Part shown: one piece after another, positions 2,971 through 50,366 of the stretch | Position numbering within the stretch: position 1 is the first letter of the stretch | How the letters are laid out: every line of letters begins with the position of its first letter | Source: Candidatus Magasanikiibacteriota bacterium | GTDB lineage: Bacteria; Patescibacteriota; Patescibacteriia; Magasanikbacterales; UBA922 | Reading direction: 5' to 3' | Assembly: GCA_041675185.1 (NCBI GenBank) | Contig: JBAYUH010000003.1 | Coordinates: forward strand, 1 to 56,288 | Length of the DNA stretch: 56,288 nt | The notes under the pieces: model-generated | Databases searched by the model: none | The model's input: the letters and a program-made list of their open reading frames with translations, nothing else | What the model was told of the DNA's origin: nothing | Translations under genes and position numbers: made by a program

Positions 2971-5900
2971 ATGTCTGAAACAAAAAGAAATAATATAGAG
3001 ATGTTTATTCCAGCGATAGAAAAAGAAAATTTGTTGGAATCCTATGATAATTTTTCTGAAAAAGTTAAACAATTATTAGTCAAAAGTGAAAAAGTAACAA
3101 AATTTTGTTCTGCAGTTTTGGATTTATTACATAGTACACCAGATGATTTGAATGAAAAATTAAAAAATAAGACTGAACTTGTAGAAGATTTGAAAAAAAT
3201 AACTTTTGAATTGAATACTATTTTTTTAGTTTTGGCAGGTAAAGAAGAGAAGAAAATTAATTTTAGTGTGGTTGTTGATAGATTAAATTATTTTGAAAAT
3301 AAAGTTGATTCTATAATGGGTGTAGTTCAAAATCCAGATCAAGAATATATTTCTTTTGTGGAAGATGAAAACAAAAATTATGTTCATGATGATTTTGATA
3401 ATGATAATTGGATGGGGGGGAAGCAAGAGCAAAAACCTACAATTCAAGAAGAAAATGATGTAAATGATAATGTCAGTAAACAAGTTGAACAAGAAAATGA
3501 AGAAGAGACTGAAATTGAAGAAAAAAGTGATTTTGTTGAAATCATAAAAAATGAAAATGATAATGAACAAGAAGAACCAGAAAAAGATATACACAAAGAA
3601 ACTCCAAAAAAATTAGGTTTTTTTAAAAAATTATTTAGTAAAGAAGGTAGACAAGAAATCAAAAAAGATGTAAAAAGTTTTGGAAAAGGATTGTTGAAAG
3701 CTTTACCAAATATGGCTTATAAGACAGCTACCTCTGTTTTTGGGGTAAAATTAGTTACTGATTCTGTTGGTTTGATTGTAGATAAAGTTACCAAAGGAAA
3801 AAACGGTTGGGGAGATTATGCTAAAATGTCCAAAAATAAATATGAACGTAAAGAAATTGAACAGACTTTTCGAGAAGCTTTTGAAGAAATATTAGTCAAA
3901 AATACCAAAGAAACAAAATCAGAAACTGAAACAACTGAAGCCAAAAGACCAAAAGAAATACTAGAAAAAATAGCAAAATTAGATGCTAAGATTGATTCTT
4001 CTCAGGCTTCAAATGAAGATAAAGTAAAATTAAAAGAAAAATTACATGAAATATTAGAACAAGATAATTTTTCCAAAAAAGAAGTTTATGAAGGTGTCAA
4101 AGAAAAAATAGCTGAAATCATCAAGACTTATACAGATAACAAACTATCTTTGATTACTGTCTTAAAAGATGCTTTGAATACAGCTGGTGTTGCTACTGGT
4201 CTTTTTGCTTTGCGTGGAGTGGCTTATGCTGGGACATCTATGGCCGAAAGGATAAGATCCAATAGATCAGAAAATAAAAAGAAAGAATTGGAAGGTAAAG
4301 AAAATGAAAAAGAAAGTACTATGAAAGATTTGTTTCTCAATTCTACAATAGAAACTTTACGTGGTTTAGGTTTTCAAGGTATCAAAAAAGATAGAACAAC
4401 ATTACAAAAAGGTGTTGATTTTGCCAAATCAGTAGGCACTATTCTTCGTGGTTTAGGTATTTACGGTGTTGCTTTTGGAGATACAGATATCGCTGGAGCT
4501 TTTCATAGATTAAGTAGTAATTTGGAAGAACATGGTTTGGCTAGTACTGTTGGACGTAATTTTGTAGATAATATAGAAAGAGTTTTTCATATTTCTCATG
4601 GTGATGAATTTAGGAAAACTTTAGCAGAACAACAAAAAGAAGTAGGTATGTTTGCTCAAAATATGGGTTTGACTGCAGCGACTTCTGTACATGAACAATT
4701 ACATGTTGGACAGAATATTCCTATTGTGGAACCTCGTAATAATATTGCAGAAAATATAGAAGTAAATCATGAGCCACAAATTTTTAGTCTGACAGTTACC
4801 AAAGGTGGTAGTGCTTGGGGAACTTTAGATAAGACTTTGGATAGTGACAATACTCCACAAGAATTTAAAAATATGTTTGTAGGTGACAAACATGTTGATT
4901 TTTCACAGTGGCGTGAAAAACAACTTCTTGATATGGGTTATCAAAAAGTAAACGGCCATTGGGGTTCACCATTTACTATTCATGCTGGAGCTGAAATGAA
5001 AGTATACAAAGGTGAAGATGGAGATTGGCATGCTAGATTTGATAAAGAACTCAAAGCTGTACATGCTGATACACATAGAGAATATCGTACAATCAATGTT
5101 CACAAAACTTTGCATTTTCAAAATGAAAATAAACATGATATTGCTGATACTAACAAAAATGAAATTGCAAACACCTTGAAAAAAATAGCAAATACCAAAG
5201 ATGTGAATTTTGATGAAAAGACTGGTGAGATTAGTTTGGTTGAGCATCATAATACTTCTCCAAATTTGGAGGTCCATACTGACCATTCACATATTTTGTC
5301 AACTGATAATACAGATCATCATGTAAAAATAGAATCTGGTACTAATTTTGAAACTAGTATTATACCAGCTAAACCAAGTTTTTTTGATGAGAGTCAAGTA
5401 ATTCATAATCAAACACATAATGTAGATCATGCAAATAACATTGAACATAATACATTATCTAACGGTCAAGCCAAAAAAGTAGAGACTACGAATATAACAT
5501 CAGAATTGAAATCTATGCAATCTGGTGTAAAAGATACAAAATCTGGTTTGATTGACAATGTGAGTACACATAAAGTGGGTGAAATAACTGCCAAAAAATT
5601 TAATACTAAAATAGAAAATATAGGATATGGTTTTGACGATAGTCCAGCTTCTGAATATGATGAACGCGGTATTTCAAAAGTAATGTATGATGTTGTCAAA
5701 GAGCGTATTATTTCTTCTCCTGATACTTTGTCAGAAGAAGCTAAGAATTTGATTGATGATAATCTTATGGATCCTGTAGAAAAGACAAGAGAATTGTCAG
5801 CTATGTTTGTGAACGAAGGTACTTTAACAGATTTGAGTCTAGAAGAGAAATTATTTTTGGGTGGAGATGATGTTTTTAATAATTCTCATGAATTTACAAG

Positions 5901-6126
5901 TGTTGCAGTATATGATGGAGATGGTAAACTTACTTCCACTGCTTATTTACCTATTGGCCATGGTGGTTCTACAGCCAATCATTGTGTTGGTTTGAAAATG
6001 GCAGGTTCTGGTGAATATAGATTTGTCTCTAGCGAAGATTCTATTTTTGTCAAAGGTATGGACAAAAATGGCGATGCTATTTTGAATGAAATAAAGAAAA
6101 GTAATATTGAAAGTAACGTTTTATAA
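2971..6126 (+). CDS. large (1051 aa) hypothetical protein with coiled-coil/acidic N-terminal third, a central hydrophobic segment and a His/Asn-rich region
   Basis: Uninterrupted 3.1-kb ORF in AT-rich sequence. Acidic tract EQENEEETEIEE. Hydrophobic segment NTAGVATGLFALRGVAYAG. His-rich tract HTDHSHILSTDNTDHH. No catalytic motif recognised. Confidence 0.75.
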   Translation: MSETKRNNIEMFIPAIEKENLLESYDNFSEKVKQLLVKSEKVTKFCSAVLDLLHSTPDDLNEKLKNKTELVEDLKKITFELNTIFLVLAGKEEKKINFSVVVDRLNYFENKVDSIMGVVQNPDQEYISFVEDENKNYVHDDFDNDNWMGGKQEQKPTIQEENDVNDNVSKQVEQENEEETEIEEKSDFVEIIKNENDNEQEEPEKDIHKETPKKLGFFKKLFSKEGRQEIKKDVKSFGKGLLKALPNMAYKTATSVFGVKLVTDSVGLIVDKVTKGKNGWGDYAKMSKNKYERKEIEQTFREAFEEILVKNTKETKSETETTEAKRPKEILEKIAKLDAKIDSSQASNEDKVKLKEKLHEILEQDNFSKKEVYEGVKEKIAEIIKTYTDNKLSLITVLKDALNTAGVATGLFALRGVAYAGTSMAERIRSNRSENKKKELEGKENEKESTMKDLFLNSTIETLRGLGFQGIKKDRTTLQKGVDFAKSVGTILRGLGIYGVAFGDTDIAGAFHRLSSNLEEHGLASTVGRNFVDNIERVFHISHGDEFRKTLAEQQKEVGMFAQNMGLTAATSVHEQLHVGQNIPIVEPRNNIAENIEVNHEPQIFSLTVTKGGSAWGTLDKTLDSDNTPQEFKNMFVGDKHVDFSQWREKQLLDMGYQKVNGHWGSPFTIHAGAEMKVYKGEDGDWHARFDKELKAVHADTHREYRTINVHKTLHFQNENKHDIADTNKNEIANTLKKIANTKDVNFDEKTGEISLVEHHNTSPNLEVHTDHSHILSTDNTDHHVKIESGTNFETSIIPAKPSFFDESQVIHNQTHNVDHANNIEHNTLSNGQAKKVETTNITSELKSMQSGVKDTKSGLIDNVSTHKVGEITAKKFNTKIENIGYGFDDSPASEYDERGISKVMYDVVKERIISSPDTLSEEAKNLIDDNLMDPVEKTRELSAMFVNEGTLTDLSLEEKLFLGGDDVFNNSHEFTSVAVYDGDGKLTSTAYLPIGHGGSTANHCVGLKMAGSGEYRFVSSEDSIFVKGMDKNGDAILNEIKKSNIESNVL

Positions 6127-6148
6127 CTTTTTTATTGCTATTTAATTG

Positions 6149-6180
6149 AAAACAACCTAAGGAATGAGGTTGTTTTTGTT
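6149..6180 (+). terminator. rho-independent terminator after the 1051-aa gene
   Basis: aaaacaacct (6149-6158) pairs perfectly with aggttgtttt (6167-6176). The loop is 8 nt and a T-run follows. Confidence 0.7.
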
Positions 6181-6266
6181 GTTAGTTATATTTTTGTGGG
6201 TTAATACCCAATTTTATCATATTGGTGGTTCCAGTAGTTTAGAATCTTTCCTTCCTGTACATGCTA

Positions 6267-6295
6267 TTGACAAAATAGTCAAAATATGTTATATT
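6267..6295 (+). promoter_or_regulatory. sigma70-type promoter TTGACA-17 nt-TATATT
   Basis: ttgaca at 6267-6272, an exact 17-nt spacer, and tatatt at 6290-6295. It sits about 350 nt upstream of the ATG at 6644. Confidence 0.5.
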
Positions 6296-6301
6296 ATCCC
6301 G

Positions 6302-6643
6302 TTCTTTACTAAAGATTAATATATGGTTGTTTTGTGGGTTGAGATAGGGGATGAGAGATAGCTCTTGTTACTATCTCAGCTAACAAGCTGAAACTATTCT
6401 AGACTATGGCATATCTATGCTATAGACAGATAGATTCTTTACAATTTACCAGTGTGGCAAACACTAAAAATAAGCGATGTAGAGTGGGTTTCCCTACACG
6501 GTCAAGACTTAGTTATAATAAATATAGTTAGGTGTTGACCGTGTAGGAACCCCGCTGTGGGGTTTGAGACGACTGTCCGTCCTTCGGACGGCGATCATTC
6601 CTCACACGGGTGTTCGTGTTCTAAACTTTGGAGGTGTATTGTT
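6302..6643 (+). promoter_or_regulatory. long structured 5' leader (or independent ncRNA) upstream of the first island gene
   Basis: Overlapping alternative hairpins: gagatag/ctatctc (6355-6361/6371-6377) and cttgtta/taacaag (6364-6370/6381-6387). A 13-bp perfect stem at 6493-6505/6535-6547. GC hairpins at 6548-6564 and 6577-6591. The SD GGAGG lies at 6630-6634. Confidence 0.45.
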
Positions 6644-7267
6644 ATGAAAACCAGTATCAACAGTAATGTCATTATTCCTCAACAAGAAATCAAGTTGCCG
6701 ATGGCTTTGGTCATCGGCAATGACGACACCACAACGACGGCGCGTACCACCGTCAAAAATCATCAACGTGGCTGGTTCTTTGGTGTCCTTTGGACACTGG
6801 GAACACTCGTGGTTCTCACGATCATCGCTGCCCTCCTTTGGGGAGCATTGAGACCGCAGCCGGTTATCGTCGACTACTCGGGCGCTCTCGGGCGCATCGA
6901 GAGTAAGATCGAGGACGGCAGGATTGAGATTTCGACGGCGGCCAACTCCTCTGTAGAGGCGGCATTATTCTCTAAGAAGAATAATGACATTTTGATTCCT
7001 GTTGCCCATCGCGTAAATCGCGACGGCAAGATTCTTGACAGGGCCCTTGGCGTCACTTATGACGCGAATGGAGAAATTTCTTCCGTTCAGACGTTGGACG
7101 AGGTTCTGATGGCGGCCAACCGCGCGGCGACCGCCGCCGAGAAGCAACCGACCATCATCGTACGGCGCGTCGAAGCGGTCGACATGACCGAGACGAACTC
7201 GAGGCTCTCGGCCATTGAGAAGGCGTTGGCTCAGCCAACGACACCCACCCTCGAGCGGGTGGAGTAG
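6644..7267 (+). CDS. bitopic membrane protein, unknown function (island gene 1)
   Basis: ATG at 6644 lies 9 nt after GGAGG. The GTG-extended version from 6557 in the track would run through the leader hairpins. Single TM (WFFGVLWTLGTLVVLTIIAALLWGAL). GC-rich codon usage. Confidence 0.7.
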   Translation: MKTSINSNVIIPQQEIKLPMALVIGNDDTTTTARTTVKNHQRGWFFGVLWTLGTLVVLTIIAALLWGALRPQPVIVDYSGALGRIESKIEDGRIEISTAANSSVEAALFSKKNNDILIPVAHRVNRDGKILDRALGVTYDANGEISSVQTLDEVLMAANRAATAAEKQPTIIVRRVEAVDMTETNSRLSAIEKALAQPTTPTLERVE

Positions 7268-7484
7268 GTAGTAAGAGTGCCACACTGGTAAACCTGGAGG
7301 TCGTAGAAGGTCGAAGAAGCTTAATTGCTTTTTTGACTGGACACGACCTCTAGGAATCCAGTACATTACACTGATTACATAGATTGTAAGAGATTATATG
7401 GAATTAGACAAATATTAAAATTAGCTAGATAACAAATATTTCGTGTCATAAGACTTATGACGTGAGATATGTGCTATCCAGCAC

Positions 7485-7706
7485 AAAATGTTCATTACAA
7501 TTTACTAATTTTTTGAGACTAAATATAGACAGAAGAGTATTTTTCTTTTGGTTTTGGGAAAATCTAGTGTGGTAAGGGAAAGAGTAATAAAGGTTTTTAT
7601 AATTCTTTCCCTTATCGCACTTAGCCGCCCCGCTCGGGGCAAATGACCCGCGTGGCGGGACGGTAAGGTTTTTTCAACTTCAGATCAAGAGAGAGGAGGT
7701 GTATAT
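7485..7706 (+). promoter_or_regulatory. structured 5' leader of island gene 2, paralogous to 6431-6643
   Basis: Shares the following with leader 1: ttacaatttac, agtgtggYaa, a long stem with an AT-rich loop (18 bp, 7566-7583/7604-7621), the ccccgctNgggg hairpin (7627-7640), a second GC hairpin (7647-7659), and GGAGGTGTAT before the ATG. Confidence 0.5.
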
Positions 7707-8462
7707 ATGATGAGCGCGATTTCGCGCTTTGTCATGACGCTGGGTCTGTGCGTTATGGCTCTCGTCGCGATTAGCGGCGAGGCGAAAGCAGACAGTTGGG
7801 TTGAGACCTATCGGACCGTGTGTCCGACAGGGTCAAAGACCCTCAATGTAACTTGTACTCGCGAAGGCGAGGAAGTTATATTGCGATTTGGCTGTGGGGG
7901 TCAGATTGCAACTTACACCTACACTTGCCAACACCCCAAGTTGGCAACAACATCGTTGCTTCCTAAGATCACCGAGGACAACTGGTTCGATTACCAGCTC
8001 GGCCTTCACACCAGTGGCGTTTTCGCCACCGGAGAGCTTCCACAGATGTTTTACATCGGTGGTGAGTTTTCCGCTCAGCTCAAACTGAGTGGGAAGTGGT
8101 GGATTTCTGGGTCACTCGGCTTGGGCTATGCCCGAGTTGATGGTGATAACATTTCTCTCACAGAAAGCTTCGGACTTCAGTACCGTATCAATACGGACTG
8201 GAATCTTGGGCTCGTCGCGCGCCACTACGTGGTGCTTGATGGTGAGGGTGATGTGCTCCAGGTGATCCTGCCCACTGTGGAGATTGTGTACAATGTTTCC
8301 AAAGGTCTGCAAGTCGTCTTGAACGGCGGTGCAGGCTGGGGACATTTCCGGGTGAGCGAGCGTATTTCAGCTGAGTCCTCTGTGGCTCCTTCTGAGTATA
8401 CAACGATCACTCGCGACGATCTCGTCGGGACGTTGGGACTGAACCTGAGGGCTAAGTTCTAA
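7707..8462 (+). CDS. secreted protein: Cys-rich N-domain plus 8-stranded outer-membrane-type beta-barrel (OmpX/OmpW/OMP_b-brl-like) (island gene 2)
   Basis: Signal peptide MMSAISRFVMTLGLCVMALVAISGEAKA. Eight amphipathic beta-strand-like segments, including FDYQLGLHT, WWISGSLGLGYARV, WNLGLVARHYVV and LVGTLGLNLRAKF. The terminal residue is Phe. Confidence 0.7.
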   Translation: MMSAISRFVMTLGLCVMALVAISGEAKADSWVETYRTVCPTGSKTLNVTCTREGEEVILRFGCGGQIATYTYTCQHPKLATTSLLPKITEDNWFDYQLGLHTSGVFATGELPQMFYIGGEFSAQLKLSGKWWISGSLGLGYARVDGDNISLTESFGLQYRINTDWNLGLVARHYVVLDGEGDVLQVILPTVEIVYNVSKGLQVVLNGGAGWGHFRVSERISAESSVAPSEYTTITRDDLVGTLGLNLRAKF

Positions 8463-8582
8463 TCAACGGTGAGCGAGGTTGTAGTCAGATACCTCGTCAA
8501 AAAAATCTGGCACAGTTCAAATTTTAGAGTTTCTGTCTATTTTTTGCAAAAGGTGGCGCTCCAGCCTTAAAATGGAGCTTGG

Positions 8583-10238
8583 ATGAAAATGAAGAATGGT
8601 ATGTTCAGTTTCGTGGTCATGGCGTTTTTCGCTATGGCTTTCTCGACCATCAGTGCTTGCGCTGACGGTCAGGGTATCAACACGCCGGCGACGTCTGTCG
8701 CTGGTCTCAACGCGGACGGGACTGGTCCCGCAGACAACTGCGAGGCAGTCTACAATCCGCCTAGTGTGAGGTTGGGAAAGAGTTGTGTTGTCGTAGCTGA
8801 CTGTAACAGTGTTGCACCGTTGTTGAAGTCAGGGGCTTCTGCTCCAGTGTTCTGTGTTACGCAGAACGAGGTAGATGACTTTGGCTGGTCACAGGTTCTT
8901 GTGGGGCAGTGCGTTGCACAGCTCGACACGGACGGTGACGCGGCTGGTGACGAGTGTGACGACGATGACGATGGTGACCTCATCAAGGACGCCGTCGACA
9001 ATTGCCCGCTGGTTACTAACCATGATCAGCTCAACACCGACCACGATGGACTTGGCGACGCCTGTGATCCCGACGACGACAACGACGGGATCCTCGATGG
9101 TGTTGACAACTGTCCGCTGGTGGAGAATGCCAATCAGCTCGACACGAACACTGATGGGGTTGGCGATGCGTGCGAGGATGACTCGGATGGCGACGGTATT
9201 CTGAATAATACCGATAACTGTCCGTTTGTGGCGAATGTTGATCAACTCAATTCCGATGATGATCTGATGGGCGACGCCTGTGATCCCGACGACGACAACG
9301 ACGGGATCCTCGACGCCGCTGACAATTGTCCGCTGGTGGCGAATGCCAATCAGCTCGACACTGACGGCGACAGTTTCGGTGATGTCTGCGATCCAGACAT
9401 CGATGGCGACACAGTACTCAACGGTGTCGACAACTGCCCGCTTGTTGCCAACCATGGTCAGCTCGACACTGACGGCGACAGTTTCGGTGATGTCTGCGAT
9501 CCAGACATCGATGGCGACACAGTACTCAACGGTGTCGACAACTGCCCGAACGTTGCTAATTTTGATCAATCAGATCTTGACAACGACAGTTTCGGTGATG
9601 TCTGCGATCCTGACTGCGACGGCGACGGCACCGTTGCGCCATGCAACGCCGACTCGGATGGCGACGGTTTCATTCCTCCTGCTGATTGTATGGAGGGTGA
9701 GGCGTCGGTTCATCCGGGTGCGACTGAGCTCTGCAACGGTGTTGACGACGACTGCGATGGTGTAACCGACGATGGCTGTCCGGCTCCCGCCTGCGTTACT
9801 GCCACCGAATGTGATGATGGTATCGCAACGAACACTGACACTTGCGTCAGCGGGGTGTGTGTACATACTCCGTTGCCGCCGGCTGGCACGTGTTTGGTGA
9901 ATGCTGATTGTCTAAGTACCGAAGCGTGTATTGCTGGGATTTGCCGACTCAAAGCAGCTCCTGGTCAATGTTCGCCTTTCGCCGTCACGGTGAAAGGGAT
10001 GACGACACCGTCGGTCAAAAAGGCATATCTTGAATGGTATACCACCTCGGCCAATCCCGCACCCACAAGGAACGGGGTAGTCGAAGATGGAACGTATCAG
10101 TCATTTGCTGGCGAATGCTCAGTTATCGCGTTTGATTTCGCGGTGGGTGAGTGTGGCTGTCATACTGCCTTTGGGGATTCTCCGTGTAAGGAGCTTCCTG
10201 ATTCACCTGGCCTCGTCGGATGCCGGCATAATCAGTAG
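8583..10238 (+). CDS. lipoprotein with six thrombospondin type 3 (calcium-binding DxDxDG...DNCP) repeats and a Cys-rich C-terminal region with a CNGVDDDCDG motif (island gene 3)
   Basis: Signal peptide with lipobox ISAC (Cys26). Six 36-aa units contain DNCPxVxNxxQxDxDxDxxGDxCDxDxDxDG. ELCNGVDDDCDGVTDDGC follows the repeats. Confidence 0.8.
   Translation: MKMKNGMFSFVVMAFFAMAFSTISACADGQGINTPATSVAGLNADGTGPADNCEAVYNPPSVRLGKSCVVVADCNSVAPLLKSGASAPVFCVTQNEVDDFGWSQVLVGQCVAQLDTDGDAAGDECDDDDDGDLIKDAVDNCPLVTNHDQLNTDHDGLGDACDPDDDNDGILDGVDNCPLVENANQLDTNTDGVGDACEDDSDGDGILNNTDNCPFVANVDQLNSDDDLMGDACDPDDDNDGILDAADNCPLVANANQLDTDGDSFGDVCDPDIDGDTVLNGVDNCPLVANHGQLDTDGDSFGDVCDPDIDGDTVLNGVDNCPNVANFDQSDLDNDSFGDVCDPDCDGDGTVAPCNADSDGDGFIPPADCMEGEASVHPGATELCNGVDDDCDGVTDDGCPAPACVTATECDDGIATNTDTCVSGVCVHTPLPPAGTCLVNADCLSTEACIAGICRLKAAPGQCSPFAVTVKGMTTPSVKKAYLEWYTTSANPAPTRNGVVEDGTYQSFAGECSVIAFDFAVGECGCHTAFGDSPCKELPDSPGLVGCRHNQ
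9351..9548 (+). repeat. perfect 90-bp tandem duplication (period 108 bp) inside the TSP3-repeat gene
   Basis: 9351-9440 and 9459-9548 are identical (cagctcgacactgacggcgacagtttcggtgatgtctgcgatccagacatcgatggcgacacagtactcaacggtgtcgacaactgcccg). A second shared block, ggcgacgcctgtgatcccgacgacgacaacgacgggatcctcga, occurs near 9053 and 9270. Confidence 0.9.
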
Positions 10239-10477
10239 TAGACATCGCAGTCTCATAAATTAGTAAAAACTGACCCTTGAAATAGGGTCCACCTGTTCAA
10301 AGATTCCAAAAACGTATTACAGTTACGTCTAGGAGGAGAGCAAGAGGTCGTGTGGACCGCTTTAAACAAAACACAACTAAGAGGGGGATGGGATTTCAGA
10401 CTGTAACTGAAATCCCTACCATATTACGCTTTTATAAATTTTATGAAGGTGTTGAGGGTAAAAATATAAATAATGAA

Positions 10478-10508
10478 ACAGTAACTTGCAATGAGTTGCT
10501 GTTTTTTT
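10478..10508 (+). terminator. rho-independent terminator closing the island transcript
   Basis: acagtaact (10478-10486) pairs with agttgctgt (10494-10502), including one G-U pair. Seven T residues follow. A second 8-bp hairpin lies at 10509-10527. Confidence 0.65.
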
Positions 10509-10577
10509 ATACTCAGTTTCTGAGTATCGCATTTATCATTTTGAAAAAAAACAAAAATATGGTAATATCTAAGTATT

Positions 10578-12065
10578 ATGATAGGTAACATTTTCCTTTA
10601 TTTACCAAATAATTTTATAGGCCTTTTTTTGTTATTGGTCATTTTTGTTTTAACTTTTCTGTTGATTTTTAAATTGAATAAAAGTGAATGGATTATTTAT
10701 ACTTTGCTTGTTTGGTTTCCTCTCGAGAGTCTTATTCTAATGTATACGCCAATTGAATTTTTTGCTTATGTAAAATATATCCCTGAAATTATCATGTATG
10801 GTCTGGCATTTGGTTCATTGATTTCTTATATCAAGGATAAAAGAAAAATTTTACCAAAACAACCTCTCAACAAATGGCTTATTGCTTTTGTGGTAGTAGC
10901 GCTCATTTCTTTATTACTAAATTTTTATAGTTGGACTACTTGGCTTCTGGGTTTGAGACAAATATTACGTTTTGTTTTGTTGGTATTTGTAATTTTGTGG
11001 ATGGATTATGATGAAAAAATTCTAAAGAAGATTATCAAATTTGGTGCAACAATGATTGCTTTGGAAATAATTTTGGGTTTTGTACAGTATTTATCTGGTG
11101 GATATTTGGATCCTTATTTATTTTCTTCACGTACTGTCAGTATTGGTAATTTGGCGTTACTTGGAGGACTAGAAGAGTTTTGGACACAAGGTAGTCGAGT
11201 ATTTGCTACGCTTGGTAGATATGATCAGCTTGGTAGTTTTGTAGCTTTGGGTATTATTTTGATGTTTCCATTTGTATTTTTTTTGAAAAAAAGACAAGAT
11301 AAATTTTGGTATTTTATTTTTTTTATTTTGGCTTTTGTAGTACTTTATCTTACTAAATCTCGTGCTAGCTGGATTGCAACTTTTCTTGGTGTTGTGACAA
11401 TTGGTTGGTTTTTGCGTAAAGACAAAAGAGTGGCTTTGGGTATTGGTGTGTTTTTGACTATTTTTGTGGCATATTTAGGTTTTTTTGCACTTAGTCATGA
11501 TAATGTCTTGTCTATTGGTGATAAACCAACCCAAACTTTGGGTGAGCGTGTATTTGAAGCTTTTAGTATTCAGGGTTTGCGAGATAGTTATGATGGTTAT
11601 GGTAGAATATTTTTTATCATAAATACTCCACGTATGGTGGTTACTAAGTATCCTTTTTTTGGTGTTGGTCCTGGACAATATGGTGGGGGAGTTGCAGCAG
11701 CACTTCTCAATACTGATATGTATGATAGATTGCATTTACCTTTTGGTATTCAAAATATTTTTGGACAAATAGACAACAATTGGATGAGTATTTGGGGTGA
11801 AGTTGGGACTATTGGTCTGATTGTTTGGATAATGGTATTTGTGACTATTATTAAGATGTCTTTGTTAGTTAGAAATAAGACAGAAAATATTTTTGAAAAA
11901 AATTTGGCTGAAGGATTGATTGGTTTGACAGTTGGTATTATGGCAATAGGATTTTTTGGACCATATTTTGAATTTAGATCGTTGATGTTTTATTATTGGG
12001 CGACAGTGGGGGTTGTGATGGTGTTTTTTGTTCGGAGGTATAATAAAAATTATTTGGAAAATTAA
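10578..12065 (+). CDS. O-antigen ligase/polymerase (Wzy_C)-like polytopic membrane protein
   Basis: 495 aa with at least 10 TM helices. The central LTKSRASWIA segment and a large loop resemble Wzy_C/O-antigen ligase proteins. Confidence 0.6.
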   Translation: MIGNIFLYLPNNFIGLFLLLVIFVLTFLLIFKLNKSEWIIYTLLVWFPLESLILMYTPIEFFAYVKYIPEIIMYGLAFGSLISYIKDKRKILPKQPLNKWLIAFVVVALISLLLNFYSWTTWLLGLRQILRFVLLVFVILWMDYDEKILKKIIKFGATMIALEIILGFVQYLSGGYLDPYLFSSRTVSIGNLALLGGLEEFWTQGSRVFATLGRYDQLGSFVALGIILMFPFVFFLKKRQDKFWYFIFFILAFVVLYLTKSRASWIATFLGVVTIGWFLRKDKRVALGIGVFLTIFVAYLGFFALSHDNVLSIGDKPTQTLGERVFEAFSIQGLRDSYDGYGRIFFIINTPRMVVTKYPFFGVGPGQYGGGVAAALLNTDMYDRLHLPFGIQNIFGQIDNNWMSIWGEVGTIGLIVWIMVFVTIIKMSLLVRNKTENIFEKNLAEGLIGLTVGIMAIGFFGPYFEFRSLMFYYWATVGVVMVFFVRRYNKNYLEN

Positions 12066-49933: not shown

Positions 49934-50326
49934 ATGTATAAAGAGAGTGATTTAACAAGAAAAATAATTGGTATAGCCATGAAAATACATCGTGAGATCG
50001 GTCCTGGATTTCAAGAAAAGATGTATCATAAAGCTATGATTTTAGATTTAGAAAAGGAAGGTTTGGTAGTTTGTAGTGAAAAAGAATTTGATGTAATATA
50101 TCAGAATGAATGTGTGGGTACTTTCAGATTGGATCTGGTGGTTGAAGGAAAGATTGTCATTGAATTAAAAGCTGTTTCAGGAGAAATTCCAAAATTATTT
50201 TATTCACAAACAATTTCTTACCTAAAAGCAAGTGGTTTGGAAATAGGCCTATTAATTAATTTTTGTAATGATAGTCTTGATATAAAACGTTTTGCAAATT
50301 ATAAAAATTTTAAACAAGGTAATTAA
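49934..50326 (+). CDS. GxxExxY protein (PD-(D/E)XK-like fold family)
   Basis: IIGIAMKIHREIGPGFQEKMYHKAM (the GxxExxY signature reads GFQEKMY) and DLVVEGKIVIELKAV. An alternative ATG lies at 49919. Confidence 0.75.
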   Translation: MYKESDLTRKIIGIAMKIHREIGPGFQEKMYHKAMILDLEKEGLVVCSEKEFDVIYQNECVGTFRLDLVVEGKIVIELKAVSGEIPKLFYSQTISYLKASGLEIGLLINFCNDSLDIKRFANYKNFKQGN

Positions 50327-50366
50327 TTTCAGTGGAATCTTTTAAAATCAGTGTAATCAATGTTAT

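Follow-up and report, generated by a model that had tools for sequence, protein, structure and literature searches.

In a 56,288-nucleotide (nt) stretch of a Candidatus Magasanikiibacteriota genome (contig JBAYUH010000003.1 of assembly GCA_041675185.1, positions 1 to 56,288, forward strand; hereafter the window), the leaders of two gene units in a GC-rich island each carry an arm that is complementary to 3' untranslated sequence just past the stop codon of the unit's last gene. The partner lies 0.8 kilobases (kb) away for gene 1 and 2.7 kb away for genes 2 and 3. We propose that these leaders are the 5' halves of RNA-level modules for processing, stability, and translation within one ~4.2-kb operon, and we give this explanation roughly an even chance of being correct. 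We infer that the modules act as RNA because of the helices and hairpins, their conservation and covariation, and their bias towards the sense strand. A module consists, in order, of a TTCWTTACAAT box, a 5' arm, stable sense-strand hairpins, and a GGAGG site; the module of gene 1 also has a 3' hairpin. The genes and the paired sequences are:

6644-7267, + strand: gene 1, encoding a single-pass membrane protein of 207 amino acids that is hypervariable between lineages
7707-8462, + strand: gene 2, encoding a protein with a signal peptide
8583-10238, + strand: gene 3, encoding a lipoprotein-like protein with thrombospondin type 3 repeats
6445-6459, + strand: 5' arm of helix 1 (TTTACCAGTGTGGCA), a perfect 15-nt complement of 7278-7292
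7278-7292, + strand: 3' arm of helix 1 (TGCCACACTGGTAAA), 10 nt past the stop codon of gene 1
7501-7520, + strand: 5' arm of helix 2 (TTTACTAATTT, then tt, then TGAGACT), which pairs with 10249-10267
10249-10267, + strand: 3' arm of helix 2 (AGTCTCA, then t, then AAATTAGTAAA), 11 nt past the stop codon of gene 3
7293-7354, + strand: imperfect 3' hairpin, directly abutting the 3' arm of helix 1, with no U-tract

Genes 2 and 3 (7707-10238) form one unit inside helix 2. An earlier note on this DNA had described the leaders of genes 1 and 2 as a structured module, duplicated in front of unrelated coding sequences, and protein comparison agrees that the products of the two genes are unrelated to each other. 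The pairing of the arms with distant 3' untranslated sequence was not listed there, nor were the promoter at 6267-6295 and the two roles of the AGTGTGG word that are described below.

Evidence for the long-range helices

We used homologs of genes 1 and 2 to locate syntenic islands, which gave three further lineages (L009, L026, and L019; the L009 group includes the near-identical contigs L010 to L018). L021 is a more distant island at the same locus, and L027, L007, and L008 represent a second strain of the organism in the window. The family is small: our scans of species genomes, metagenomes, and viral contigs gave four close lineages and one distant one.

Helix 2 consists of 11 base pairs (bp), a 2x1 internal loop, and another 7 bp. 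Its duplex energy is -19.3 kcal/mol, which was equalled by 1 of 300 shuffled sequences, and its ortholog in L009 has two compensatory changes and one G-U pair. Complementary arms are present in 8 of 12 cassettes. Besides the two in the window, these are gene 1 of L009, gene 1 of L026, genes 2-3 of L009, the two extra cassettes of L019 (L019-A and L019-B), and cassette 1 of L021. The arms fall into five sequence classes, each with its own sequence (GTGTGGCA, ACTACTT, ACGAT, CTAATTT, and CGTGTCAAAA). When the eight helices are aligned in register, 88% of the cells are standard pairs, versus 29-47% if the partner is slid, and both sides have changed in a compensatory way in 14 of the 15 pairs. 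The covariation score of the eight helices is 0.80, as compared to 0.27 in shuffles (0 of 500 reached it).

At one position of the arms, the pair is U-A in the window, U-G in L026, and C-G in L009. There is a second sense-strand G-U pair in genes 2-3 of L009, and we saw no A-C pair among the arms. This pattern of wobble pairs mildly favors pairing in the sense RNA. The helices also appear when longer sequences are folded: the pair probability of helix 1 is 0.92 in a fold of nt 6300-7400, and the arms have pair probabilities of 0.92-0.99 in folds of whole cassettes of 1.1-1.2 kb. The native genes of the window have just 6-10 nt of complementarity between their 5' and 3' flanks, mostly AT-only, although two of them reach 12-13 nt.

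The 3' hairpin at 7293-7354 is conserved in L009, L026, L019-A, and L019-B, and is flanked by ACTGGTAAA and AATCCAGT. With no linker between them, this predicted hairpin could stack on helix 1.

Proposed role of the modules

If the arms do pair in the transcript, then each 5' arm would join the sequence just past the stop codon of the last gene in its module and would loop out 0.8 kb with gene 1 or 2.7 kb with genes 2-3. The resulting helices might act like the stems that flank ribosomal RNAs, as sites for cleavage by a double-strand-specific nuclease of the RNase III type. Alternatively, they might be panhandles that shield both ends of a unit from exonucleases. By either route, the operon transcript would be divided into units that are separately stable and separately translated. 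In the module of gene 1, the 3' hairpin would be stacked on the long-range helix. The GGAGG site would be partly masked by an upstream pyrimidine stretch, so that the leaders may give both stability and controllable ribosome entry to GC-rich genes in a genome that otherwise lacks Shine-Dalgarno sites. The operon would then be one that encodes GC-rich, hypervariable envelope proteins within a Magasanikbacteria chromosome. The earlier note had listed an RNase III processing module among several possibilities; and these helices agree with that idea.

Several points weigh against this proposal. The mechanism is deduced from the sequence and from predicted folds. The alignment of the arms of the eight helices was registered by hand to the helix, and with only four or five lineages, two of them close, the covariation statistics are thin. 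Inverted repeats that are under selection as DNA would also covary. The arms are missing from genes 2-3 of L026, where the 3' region was replaced; from genes 2-3 of L019, which has a 19-nt deletion of the 5' arm; and from cassettes 2 and 3 of L021. Because they are missing from these four cassettes, the arms must be dispensable at least sometimes. The helices are 13-18 bp long, which is below the length of a classic RNase III substrate, and the 3' hairpins show no strand preference in folding. Finally, the predicted masking of the GGAGG sites is variable (0.17-1.0, versus a mean of 0.66 for control sites) and is not clearly stronger than at the controls.

The closest parallel is in ribosomal RNA operons, where RNase III processing stems bracket the 16S and 23S rRNA (reviewed in PMC6582327). 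There too, 5' and 3' sequences in one polycistronic transcript pair over kilobases and loop out the enclosed RNA, and the helix sequence drifts while complementarity is kept. The ribosomal stems usually span about two helical turns; in contrast, the helices of 13-18 bp described here enclose protein-coding cistrons, and their cleavage is a prediction. The terminating ribosomes must melt the 3' arm, because it lies 0-11 nt from the stop codon (~30 nt in genes 2-3 of L009). A second parallel is the icaR mRNA of Staphylococcus aureus, in which the two untranslated regions pair with each other; there, the pairing affects translation and RNase III-dependent decay (PMC3868564). The partner of the icaR 3' region is the ribosome-binding site itself, whereas the 3' arms in the window pair 171 and 175 nt upstream of GGAGG (170-190 nt overall), beside the conserved box. 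Also unlike icaR, one operon has the arrangement on several of its cassettes. Conserved long-range pairing between 5' and 3' untranslated regions has been documented for very few bacterial genes; here it is recurrent and clearly covaries. The gene-bracketing arrangement of helices is absent from the RNA families catalogued in Rfam 15.

The leaders of ermC and aprE are 5'-terminal stem-loops that stabilize mRNAs in Gram-positive bacteria. They resemble the island leaders in having a stable structure at the start of a long leader and a strong ribosome-binding site. Whereas theirs are local hairpins of single genes, here the 3' end of the unit takes part in the first helix.

Structure and shared motifs of the leaders

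The elements of the two leaders and of their transcription unit are:

6267-6295, + strand: island promoter (TTGACA, 17-nt spacer, TATATT, extended TG)
6298-6434, + strand: upstream section of leader 1, with three hairpins, including the invariant palindrome TCAGCT (6376-6381)...AGCTGA (6386-6391)
6435-6449, + strand: TTACAAT box 1 (TTCTTTACAATTTAC), one base off an exact repeat of the box at 7491-7505
6493-6547, + strand: long hairpin of leader 1 with an AT-rich apex, conserved in L009 and L026
6549-6620, + strand: GC-rich irregular stem region of leader 1, with CCCCGCTGTGGGG at 6550-6562 and an GTCCGTCC/GGACGG hairpin at ~6573-6595
6630-6639, + strand: Shine-Dalgarno region of gene 1 (GGAGGTGTAT); the consensus fold pairs its GGAGG with UUUCC just 5' of the long hairpin
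7355-7400, + strand: CCAGT and then a GATTACA-type element (ACATTACACTGATTACATAGATTGTAAGAGATTA)
7491-7505, + strand: TTACAAT box 2 (TTCATTACAATTTAC)
7566-7621, + strand: long hairpin of leader 2 (P2), with two G-U pairs and with 3-4 compensatory pairs across four lineages
7624-7664, + strand: GC-rich stem of leader 2 (GCCGCCCCGCU...GGCGGGACGGU), part of the RNAalifold consensus; its changes are all of the G-C to G-U type
7695-7704, + strand: Shine-Dalgarno region of gene 2 (GGAGGTGTAT)
10475-10505, + strand: first intrinsic-terminator-like site after the promoter, taken as the end of the island's transcription unit

Both leaders fold far better than shuffled sequences (z about -8), and in 11 of 12 leaders across the lineages, the sense strand folds better than the antisense strand and has more G-U pairs. 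Together with the compensatory changes in the stems of orthologous leaders, this supports the suggestion, made when the leaders were first described, that they are structured cis elements of the sense RNA, and they are conserved. The long stems with AT-rich loops are at 6493-6517/6523-6547 in leader 1 and at 7566-7591/7596-7621 in leader 2, and both were confirmed. Hairpins that are analogous to the one in leader 1, with covarying stems, are present in L019-A and L019-B. Four lineages keep the upstream section of leader 1, among them L019, in which another gene follows; 9 of the 27 predicted pairs of this section have compensatory changes. The CCCCGCTGTGGGG/CCCCGCTCGGGG elements and the second GC hairpins that had been described in both leaders are visible in the window, but the orthologs fit the CCCCG hairpin of leader 2 better into the stem at 7624-7664. 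Similarly, the word in the AT-rich loops is present in the window but is not conserved in orthologs of leader 2.

There are exactly two copies of TTACAATTTAC (at 6439-6449 and 7495-7505, one base away from where they had been placed) and exactly two of GGAGGTGTAT (at 6630-6639 and 7695-7704). Each copy of GGAGGTGTAT is 4-7 nt upstream of the ATG of its gene, as had been claimed. AGTGTGGYAA is at 6451-6460 and 7566-7575, again as claimed. This motif on its own is not over-represented (10 matches versus 7 expected), and its AGTGTGG word has different roles in the two leaders: in leader 1, it is part of the 5' arm of the long-range helix, while in leader 2, it is in the 5' strand of the local hairpin.

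The leaders share ten 8-mers, as compared to 0.94 expected (0 of 1000 dinucleotide shuffles had as many), and their global alignment score was reached in 1 of 1000 shuffles. The best local alignment between them covers only the 15-nt box TTCWTTACAATTTAC. In nhmmer searches, profiles of the orthologs of either leader miss the other, even with a threshold of E = 10. The leaders therefore share two short motifs (TTCWTTACAATTTAC and GGAGGTGTAT) and a similar layout, without alignable homology. For the window, the idea of a duplicated module is thus right only in part: the box, the Shine-Dalgarno motif, and the layout stand, and nhmmer and local alignment give no sign of further homology.

We also considered whether the resemblance might be due to chance, with GC-rich hairpins and AT-rich filler in foreign DNA giving functionless look-alikes. 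This would account for the lack of global homology between the leaders, and AGTGTGGYAA and the words in the AT-rich loops are indeed not significant alone. On the other hand, the number of shared 8-mers was above all 1000 shuffles, the folds have the extreme z given above, orthologous leaders are conserved above the level of the coding sequences, and both the stems and the arms covary. Chance is already contradicted by the conservation and the covariation, and we consider it hardly credible.

Might the leaders sense a signal instead?

Another explanation is that the leaders are riboswitches, RNA thermometers, or protein-binding switches, with multi-branch folds that hide the ribosome-binding site until the closing helix is opened by a signal, and that the arms are secondary. 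The consensus folds of both leaders close with a pyrimidine stretch paired to GGAGG (UUUCC or CUUCC in the orthologs of leader 1, and CCUCC in leader 2 of L026), several leaders have a predicted pairing probability of 0.93-1.0 at this site, and the multi-stem junctions are conserved. In five other leaders, the masking is just 0.17-0.69, compared to the control mean of 0.66. The conserved bases are mostly in stems, and there is no conserved unpaired core of the kind that is typical of a ligand pocket. The earlier note did not recognize the leaders as any named RNA family, and this held up: scans of the window, L009, L019, L021, L024, and L026 with Rfam 15 found tRNAs only and no family match at the gathering score for the leaders, and a permissive scan of 6100-10700 gave only sub-threshold look-alikes of microRNAs and snoRNAs on the hairpins. 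A shared sensor is unlikely given the lack of homology between leaders 1 and 2, and the membrane and surface proteins give no hint of a ligand. Overall, we think that signal-sensing leaders are an unlikely explanation.

A probable single operon with its own translation signals

A promoter scan of 5900-10800 found a single strong promoter, at 6267-6295 (score 11 of 12), and this promoter is kept in L009, L026, and L019. No intrinsic terminator was predicted between it and 10475-10505. With a single strong promoter and without an intrinsic terminator inside it, 6267-10505 is most simply one operon of ~4.2 kb. Counted from this promoter, leader 1 is ~340 nt long and not 200.

The island promoter has a second copy (TTGACAAAA..TCAAAAATGTGTTATA(T/C)T), 180-270 nt upstream of the main one, in L009 (7752-7782), L019 (7167-7196), and L026 (~1711-1741). 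Downstream of the copies in L009 and L026 come ~100 nt and then a palindrome, so that these copies could drive a small RNA. Within leader 1 itself, a perfect TATAAT (6514-6519) lies in the apical loop region of the long hairpin and is kept in L009 and L026; judged by its sequence, it is a possible internal transcription start, as a candidate only, and it lacks a good -35 element. We rejected a conserved upstream peptide in leader 1, as the 41-codon open reading frame (ORF) at 6406-6531 shifts frame in L009 and has no ATG in L019.

GGAG, GAGG, or AGGA occurs within 22 nt of the start codon for none of the 38 native genes but for all three island genes, as GGAG(G). GGAGGTGTAT is therefore specific to the island rather than a genome-wide consensus for ribosome-binding sites. 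Many native genes have TATAAT-like boxes 5-10 nt before the ATG (for instance, those with starts at 428, 12590, 32531, 46742, and 54132), which suggests leaderless, AU-rich, or Shine-Dalgarno-independent initiation. Having native genes that lack Shine-Dalgarno motifs and island genes with long folded leaders and a perfect GGAGG in one genome makes the expression of foreign-looking genes in such cells directly testable. The host is from an uncultured candidate-phylum lineage whose gene expression is almost unstudied.

The TTACAA box is at the head of every GC-rich cassette that we examined (in L009, L019, L021, and L026). Across ~300 kb of Magasanikbacteria DNA, T[CT][AT]TTACAA[TAG] followed by GC-rich DNA was found at cassette heads only. 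(We rejected concerted evolution of the two boxes: both boxes of L009 have TTCAC, but L026 has one TTTAC and one TTCAC.) Since the box is so specific to cassettes, it might be a DNA signal, either a promoter's -35 element (TTTACA or ATTACA) or an operator, with each box starting its own transcript. TTTACA is a functional variant of the -35 element in the lac promoter, and a gene-end element of the GATTACA type separates gene 1 from box 2. Yet eight cassettes show no consistent -10 hexamer at 16-19 nt, and the promoter scan did not report the boxes. The box of the first cassette is 140 nt downstream of a near-consensus promoter, and the complementarity of the next 12-18 nt to the 3' untranslated region would be left unexplained. 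We regard a DNA signal as improbable.

The GATTACA-type element marks the right end of the island in L009, L019, L024, and L026, and it also follows many ordinary Magasanikbacteria genes. It has the form ACACTGATTACA..(8-12 nt)..A[AG]AGATTA, usually followed by ACAC[AT]GA, and is a dispersed repeat of Magasanikbacteria with several loci per genome (L033-L061). In the window, it is present at 7361-7400 (+ strand) and ~50320-50360 (- strand). The usual site is right after a stop codon and before the terminator; otherwise, the element is inverted beside a start codon.

Conservation of the modules and possible exchange of the genes

Noncoding sequence is better conserved than the coding sequence beside it. 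Compared to L009, the noncoding region 6267-6621 is 76% identical, while coding sequences are ~68% identical or undetectable at the DNA level. In the comparison of L009 with L026, identity is 98% for the 3' hairpin and spacer and 80-91% for the leader, but gene 1 is just 52-64% identical, with 0.90 synonymous substitutions per site (dS), 0.44 nonsynonymous substitutions per site (dN), and dN/dS of 0.49. Gene 1 of the window has 51-56% amino acid identity to its orthologs, with dN/dS of 0.2-0.5. There are no differences between the window and strain L027 in 6127-6643 or 7268-7706. (Elsewhere, these two strains have ~35 differences in 8287-8443 and ~70 in 8708-8960; these patches inside genes 2 and 3 are ~25% divergent, while the DNA between and around them, with both leaders, is identical, and they look like short recombination tracts.) The gene trees of genes 2 and 3 disagree. 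In short, the untranslated modules are more conserved than the mosaic, hypervariable coding sequences beside them, which is the hallmark of a surface-protein locus that recombines frequently. Either these conserved modules serve as crossover anchors or they are themselves under strong constraint. That they outlast the coding sequence points to a locus that is dedicated to surface variation.

If they are anchors, then the box, arms, and 3' palindrome might be DNA-level cassette boundaries: recombination sites at which cassettes are swapped, duplicated, or captured. This could occur by an integron-like route or by homologous exchange at the conserved flanks, and the complementarity would be what remains of a palindromic site that was split on integration. 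The homology of L019 to the other lineages breaks exactly at the junction of TTACAAT and the arm (TTACAATTCACCAGT / TTTACAATTCACCAGT), and different genes follow. L019-A and L019-B are paralogs in tandem, and a box, arms, and a palindrome are present in each. Unlike leaders 1 and 2 of the window, the leaders of these two cassettes are truly paralogous (76% identity over 83 nt, E = 2e-13), and the two proteins resemble each other weakly. Direct CCAGT repeats bound the cassettes in the window, L009, and L019, and ACTGG...CCAGT flanks the palindrome. The palindromes contain bulged bases and are strand-neutral. Boundaries in the DNA would also fit with the dS of 0.9 for gene 1 between flanks that are 98% identical, with the mosaic coding sequences, and with the clustering of strain differences in patches. 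Island content varies at this one locus: L021, L023, and L024 have other contents, and L028 lacks the island.

On the other side, the ~40 ORFs of the window include no integrase, invertase, transposase, or other recombinase (by Pfam), although the rest of the genome could encode one, and there is no attC-type GTTRRRY core. The arm sequence is not conserved and is therefore not a protein-binding site. The mismatches of the arms are G-U on the sense strand and the leaders fold best in the sense direction. All contigs that span the cassettes are colinear, gene order is stable in four lineages, and cassette 1 of L021 has arms but no distal repeat. Recombination boundaries are thus an unlikely explanation for the shared elements, but one to take seriously.

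As in integrons, there is a row of unrelated genes, each ending in a bulged, imperfect palindrome with short complementary cores, and homology breaks at the junctions. Unlike integrons, the island has no integrase, attI, or GTTRRRY core, and its gene order is stable across species. An attC site lies wholly 3' of its gene and has an inverse core (RYYYAAC) and a core (GTTRRRY) on either side of the palindrome; here, ACTGGTAAA and AATCCAGT are in those places, and the arms are on opposite sides of the gene, with the longer complementary partner 5' of it (6445-6459). Also, integron cassettes are mostly promoterless and have very short 5' untranslated regions, whereas the structured leaders here are ~200 to ~340 nt long. 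An inverton would similarly be flanked by an inverted repeat, such as the perfect 15-nt repeat 6445-6459/7278-7292; however, all the spanning contigs (L009, L010, L011, L014, and L015, and L027 versus the window) are colinear, in what is a small sampling, and there is no invertase in the window. We rejected DNA inversion, which the minus-strand gene calls in L009-L013 might have indicated, because L014 and L015 are 100% colinear with L009 and the calls are artefacts of GC-rich sequence. IS200/IS605 elements, or repetitive extragenic palindromes (REP) with their RAYT transposases, would have a Y1 HUH transposase and subterminal hairpins but no terminal inverted repeats; the window lacks such a gene, and the cassettes do have terminal complementarity.

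The two roles might also be combined. The box, arms, and palindrome could form a portable expression cassette that acts as an RNA panhandle, processed and protected, and also as DNA crossover points for the exchange, duplication, and capture of divergent alleles of surface proteins. We give this dual role only a small chance. If it is true, the cassettes would be a recombinase-independent, integron-like system for variation, kept in a reduced genome with native genes that have neither Shine-Dalgarno sites nor long leaders.

Distribution and setting of the island

Exact-pattern scans of species genomes for both shared motifs found only chance matches in unrelated phyla. The core of leader 2 and TTACAATTYACCAGT also had only chance matches in viral contigs, and collections of phages and plasmids gave no match. 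The pattern of the island head was present, among species genomes, only in the L019 genome and in a contig that is identical to L026 and was binned as an archaeon. A metagenome scan that used the downstream O-antigen-ligase-like protein found no further island, and in the literature, we found no account of such islands in these bacteria. (The contig binned as archaeal is L062, or MNVH01000037.1, a 5-kb contig with a complete island whose public record places it in a bin of Candidatus Micrarchaeota. With 99.5% identity to L026, which is of the Magasanikbacteria type, it was probably mis-binned on account of its GC content.)

The window is an AT-rich chromosome segment (~31% GC) whose nearest relatives are genomes of Candidatus Magasanikbacteria (Patescibacteria) from groundwater metagenomes. 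It contains ordinary bacterial genes, including those for UvrA, UvrC, MraZ, MraW, a ClpB-like ATPase, DnaB, RecR, a penicillin-binding protein, and many glycosyltransferases. The island (6500-10300) is 48-56% GC and lies between the gene for a protein of 1051 amino acids and an O-antigen-ligase-like (Wzy_C) gene. The island genes have a third-codon-position GC content of 0.57-0.67 in the window and of 0.77-0.90 in the relatives, and the island's GC content rises to 62-74% in L021; the host genomes are at 30-40%. The high-GC state at this one locus has been retained across species and was not ameliorated. The GC-rich DNA has long antisense ORFs (8889-9569 and 6965-7366 in the window; 8252-8995 and 10676-12202 in L009; all on the - strand), and some public assemblies annotate these as genes, which gives a false look of inverted gene order.

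Within gene 3, 108-nt tandem repeats at 8919-9643 encode the thrombospondin type 3 units. The number of repeats varies by strain, as the protein has 551 amino acids in the window and 515 in L007.

Between the large protein and the island promoter, L009 (7200-7910) and L026 (830-1860) have REP-like palindromes (GTAGGGACAGGTC..GACCTGTCCCTAC). In the same interval, L026 has an intact ORF of 203 amino acids with an HVH motif, which is degraded to 91 amino acids in L009; the protein had no Pfam match at E = 0.001. The window has neither the palindromes nor the ORF. A tRNA gene is located at 13525-13595 of L019, ~500 nt past the end of the island, while the nearest tRNAs in the window (19725 and 19898) are 9 kb downstream. 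The sequence at the island's right flank, TTTTATAAA(N)TTTATGAAGGTGTTGAGGGT, is shared by the window (10430-10460) and the distant L021 (9741-9770) despite their different island contents, which suggests a fixed point of insertion or variation upstream of the Wzy_C gene.

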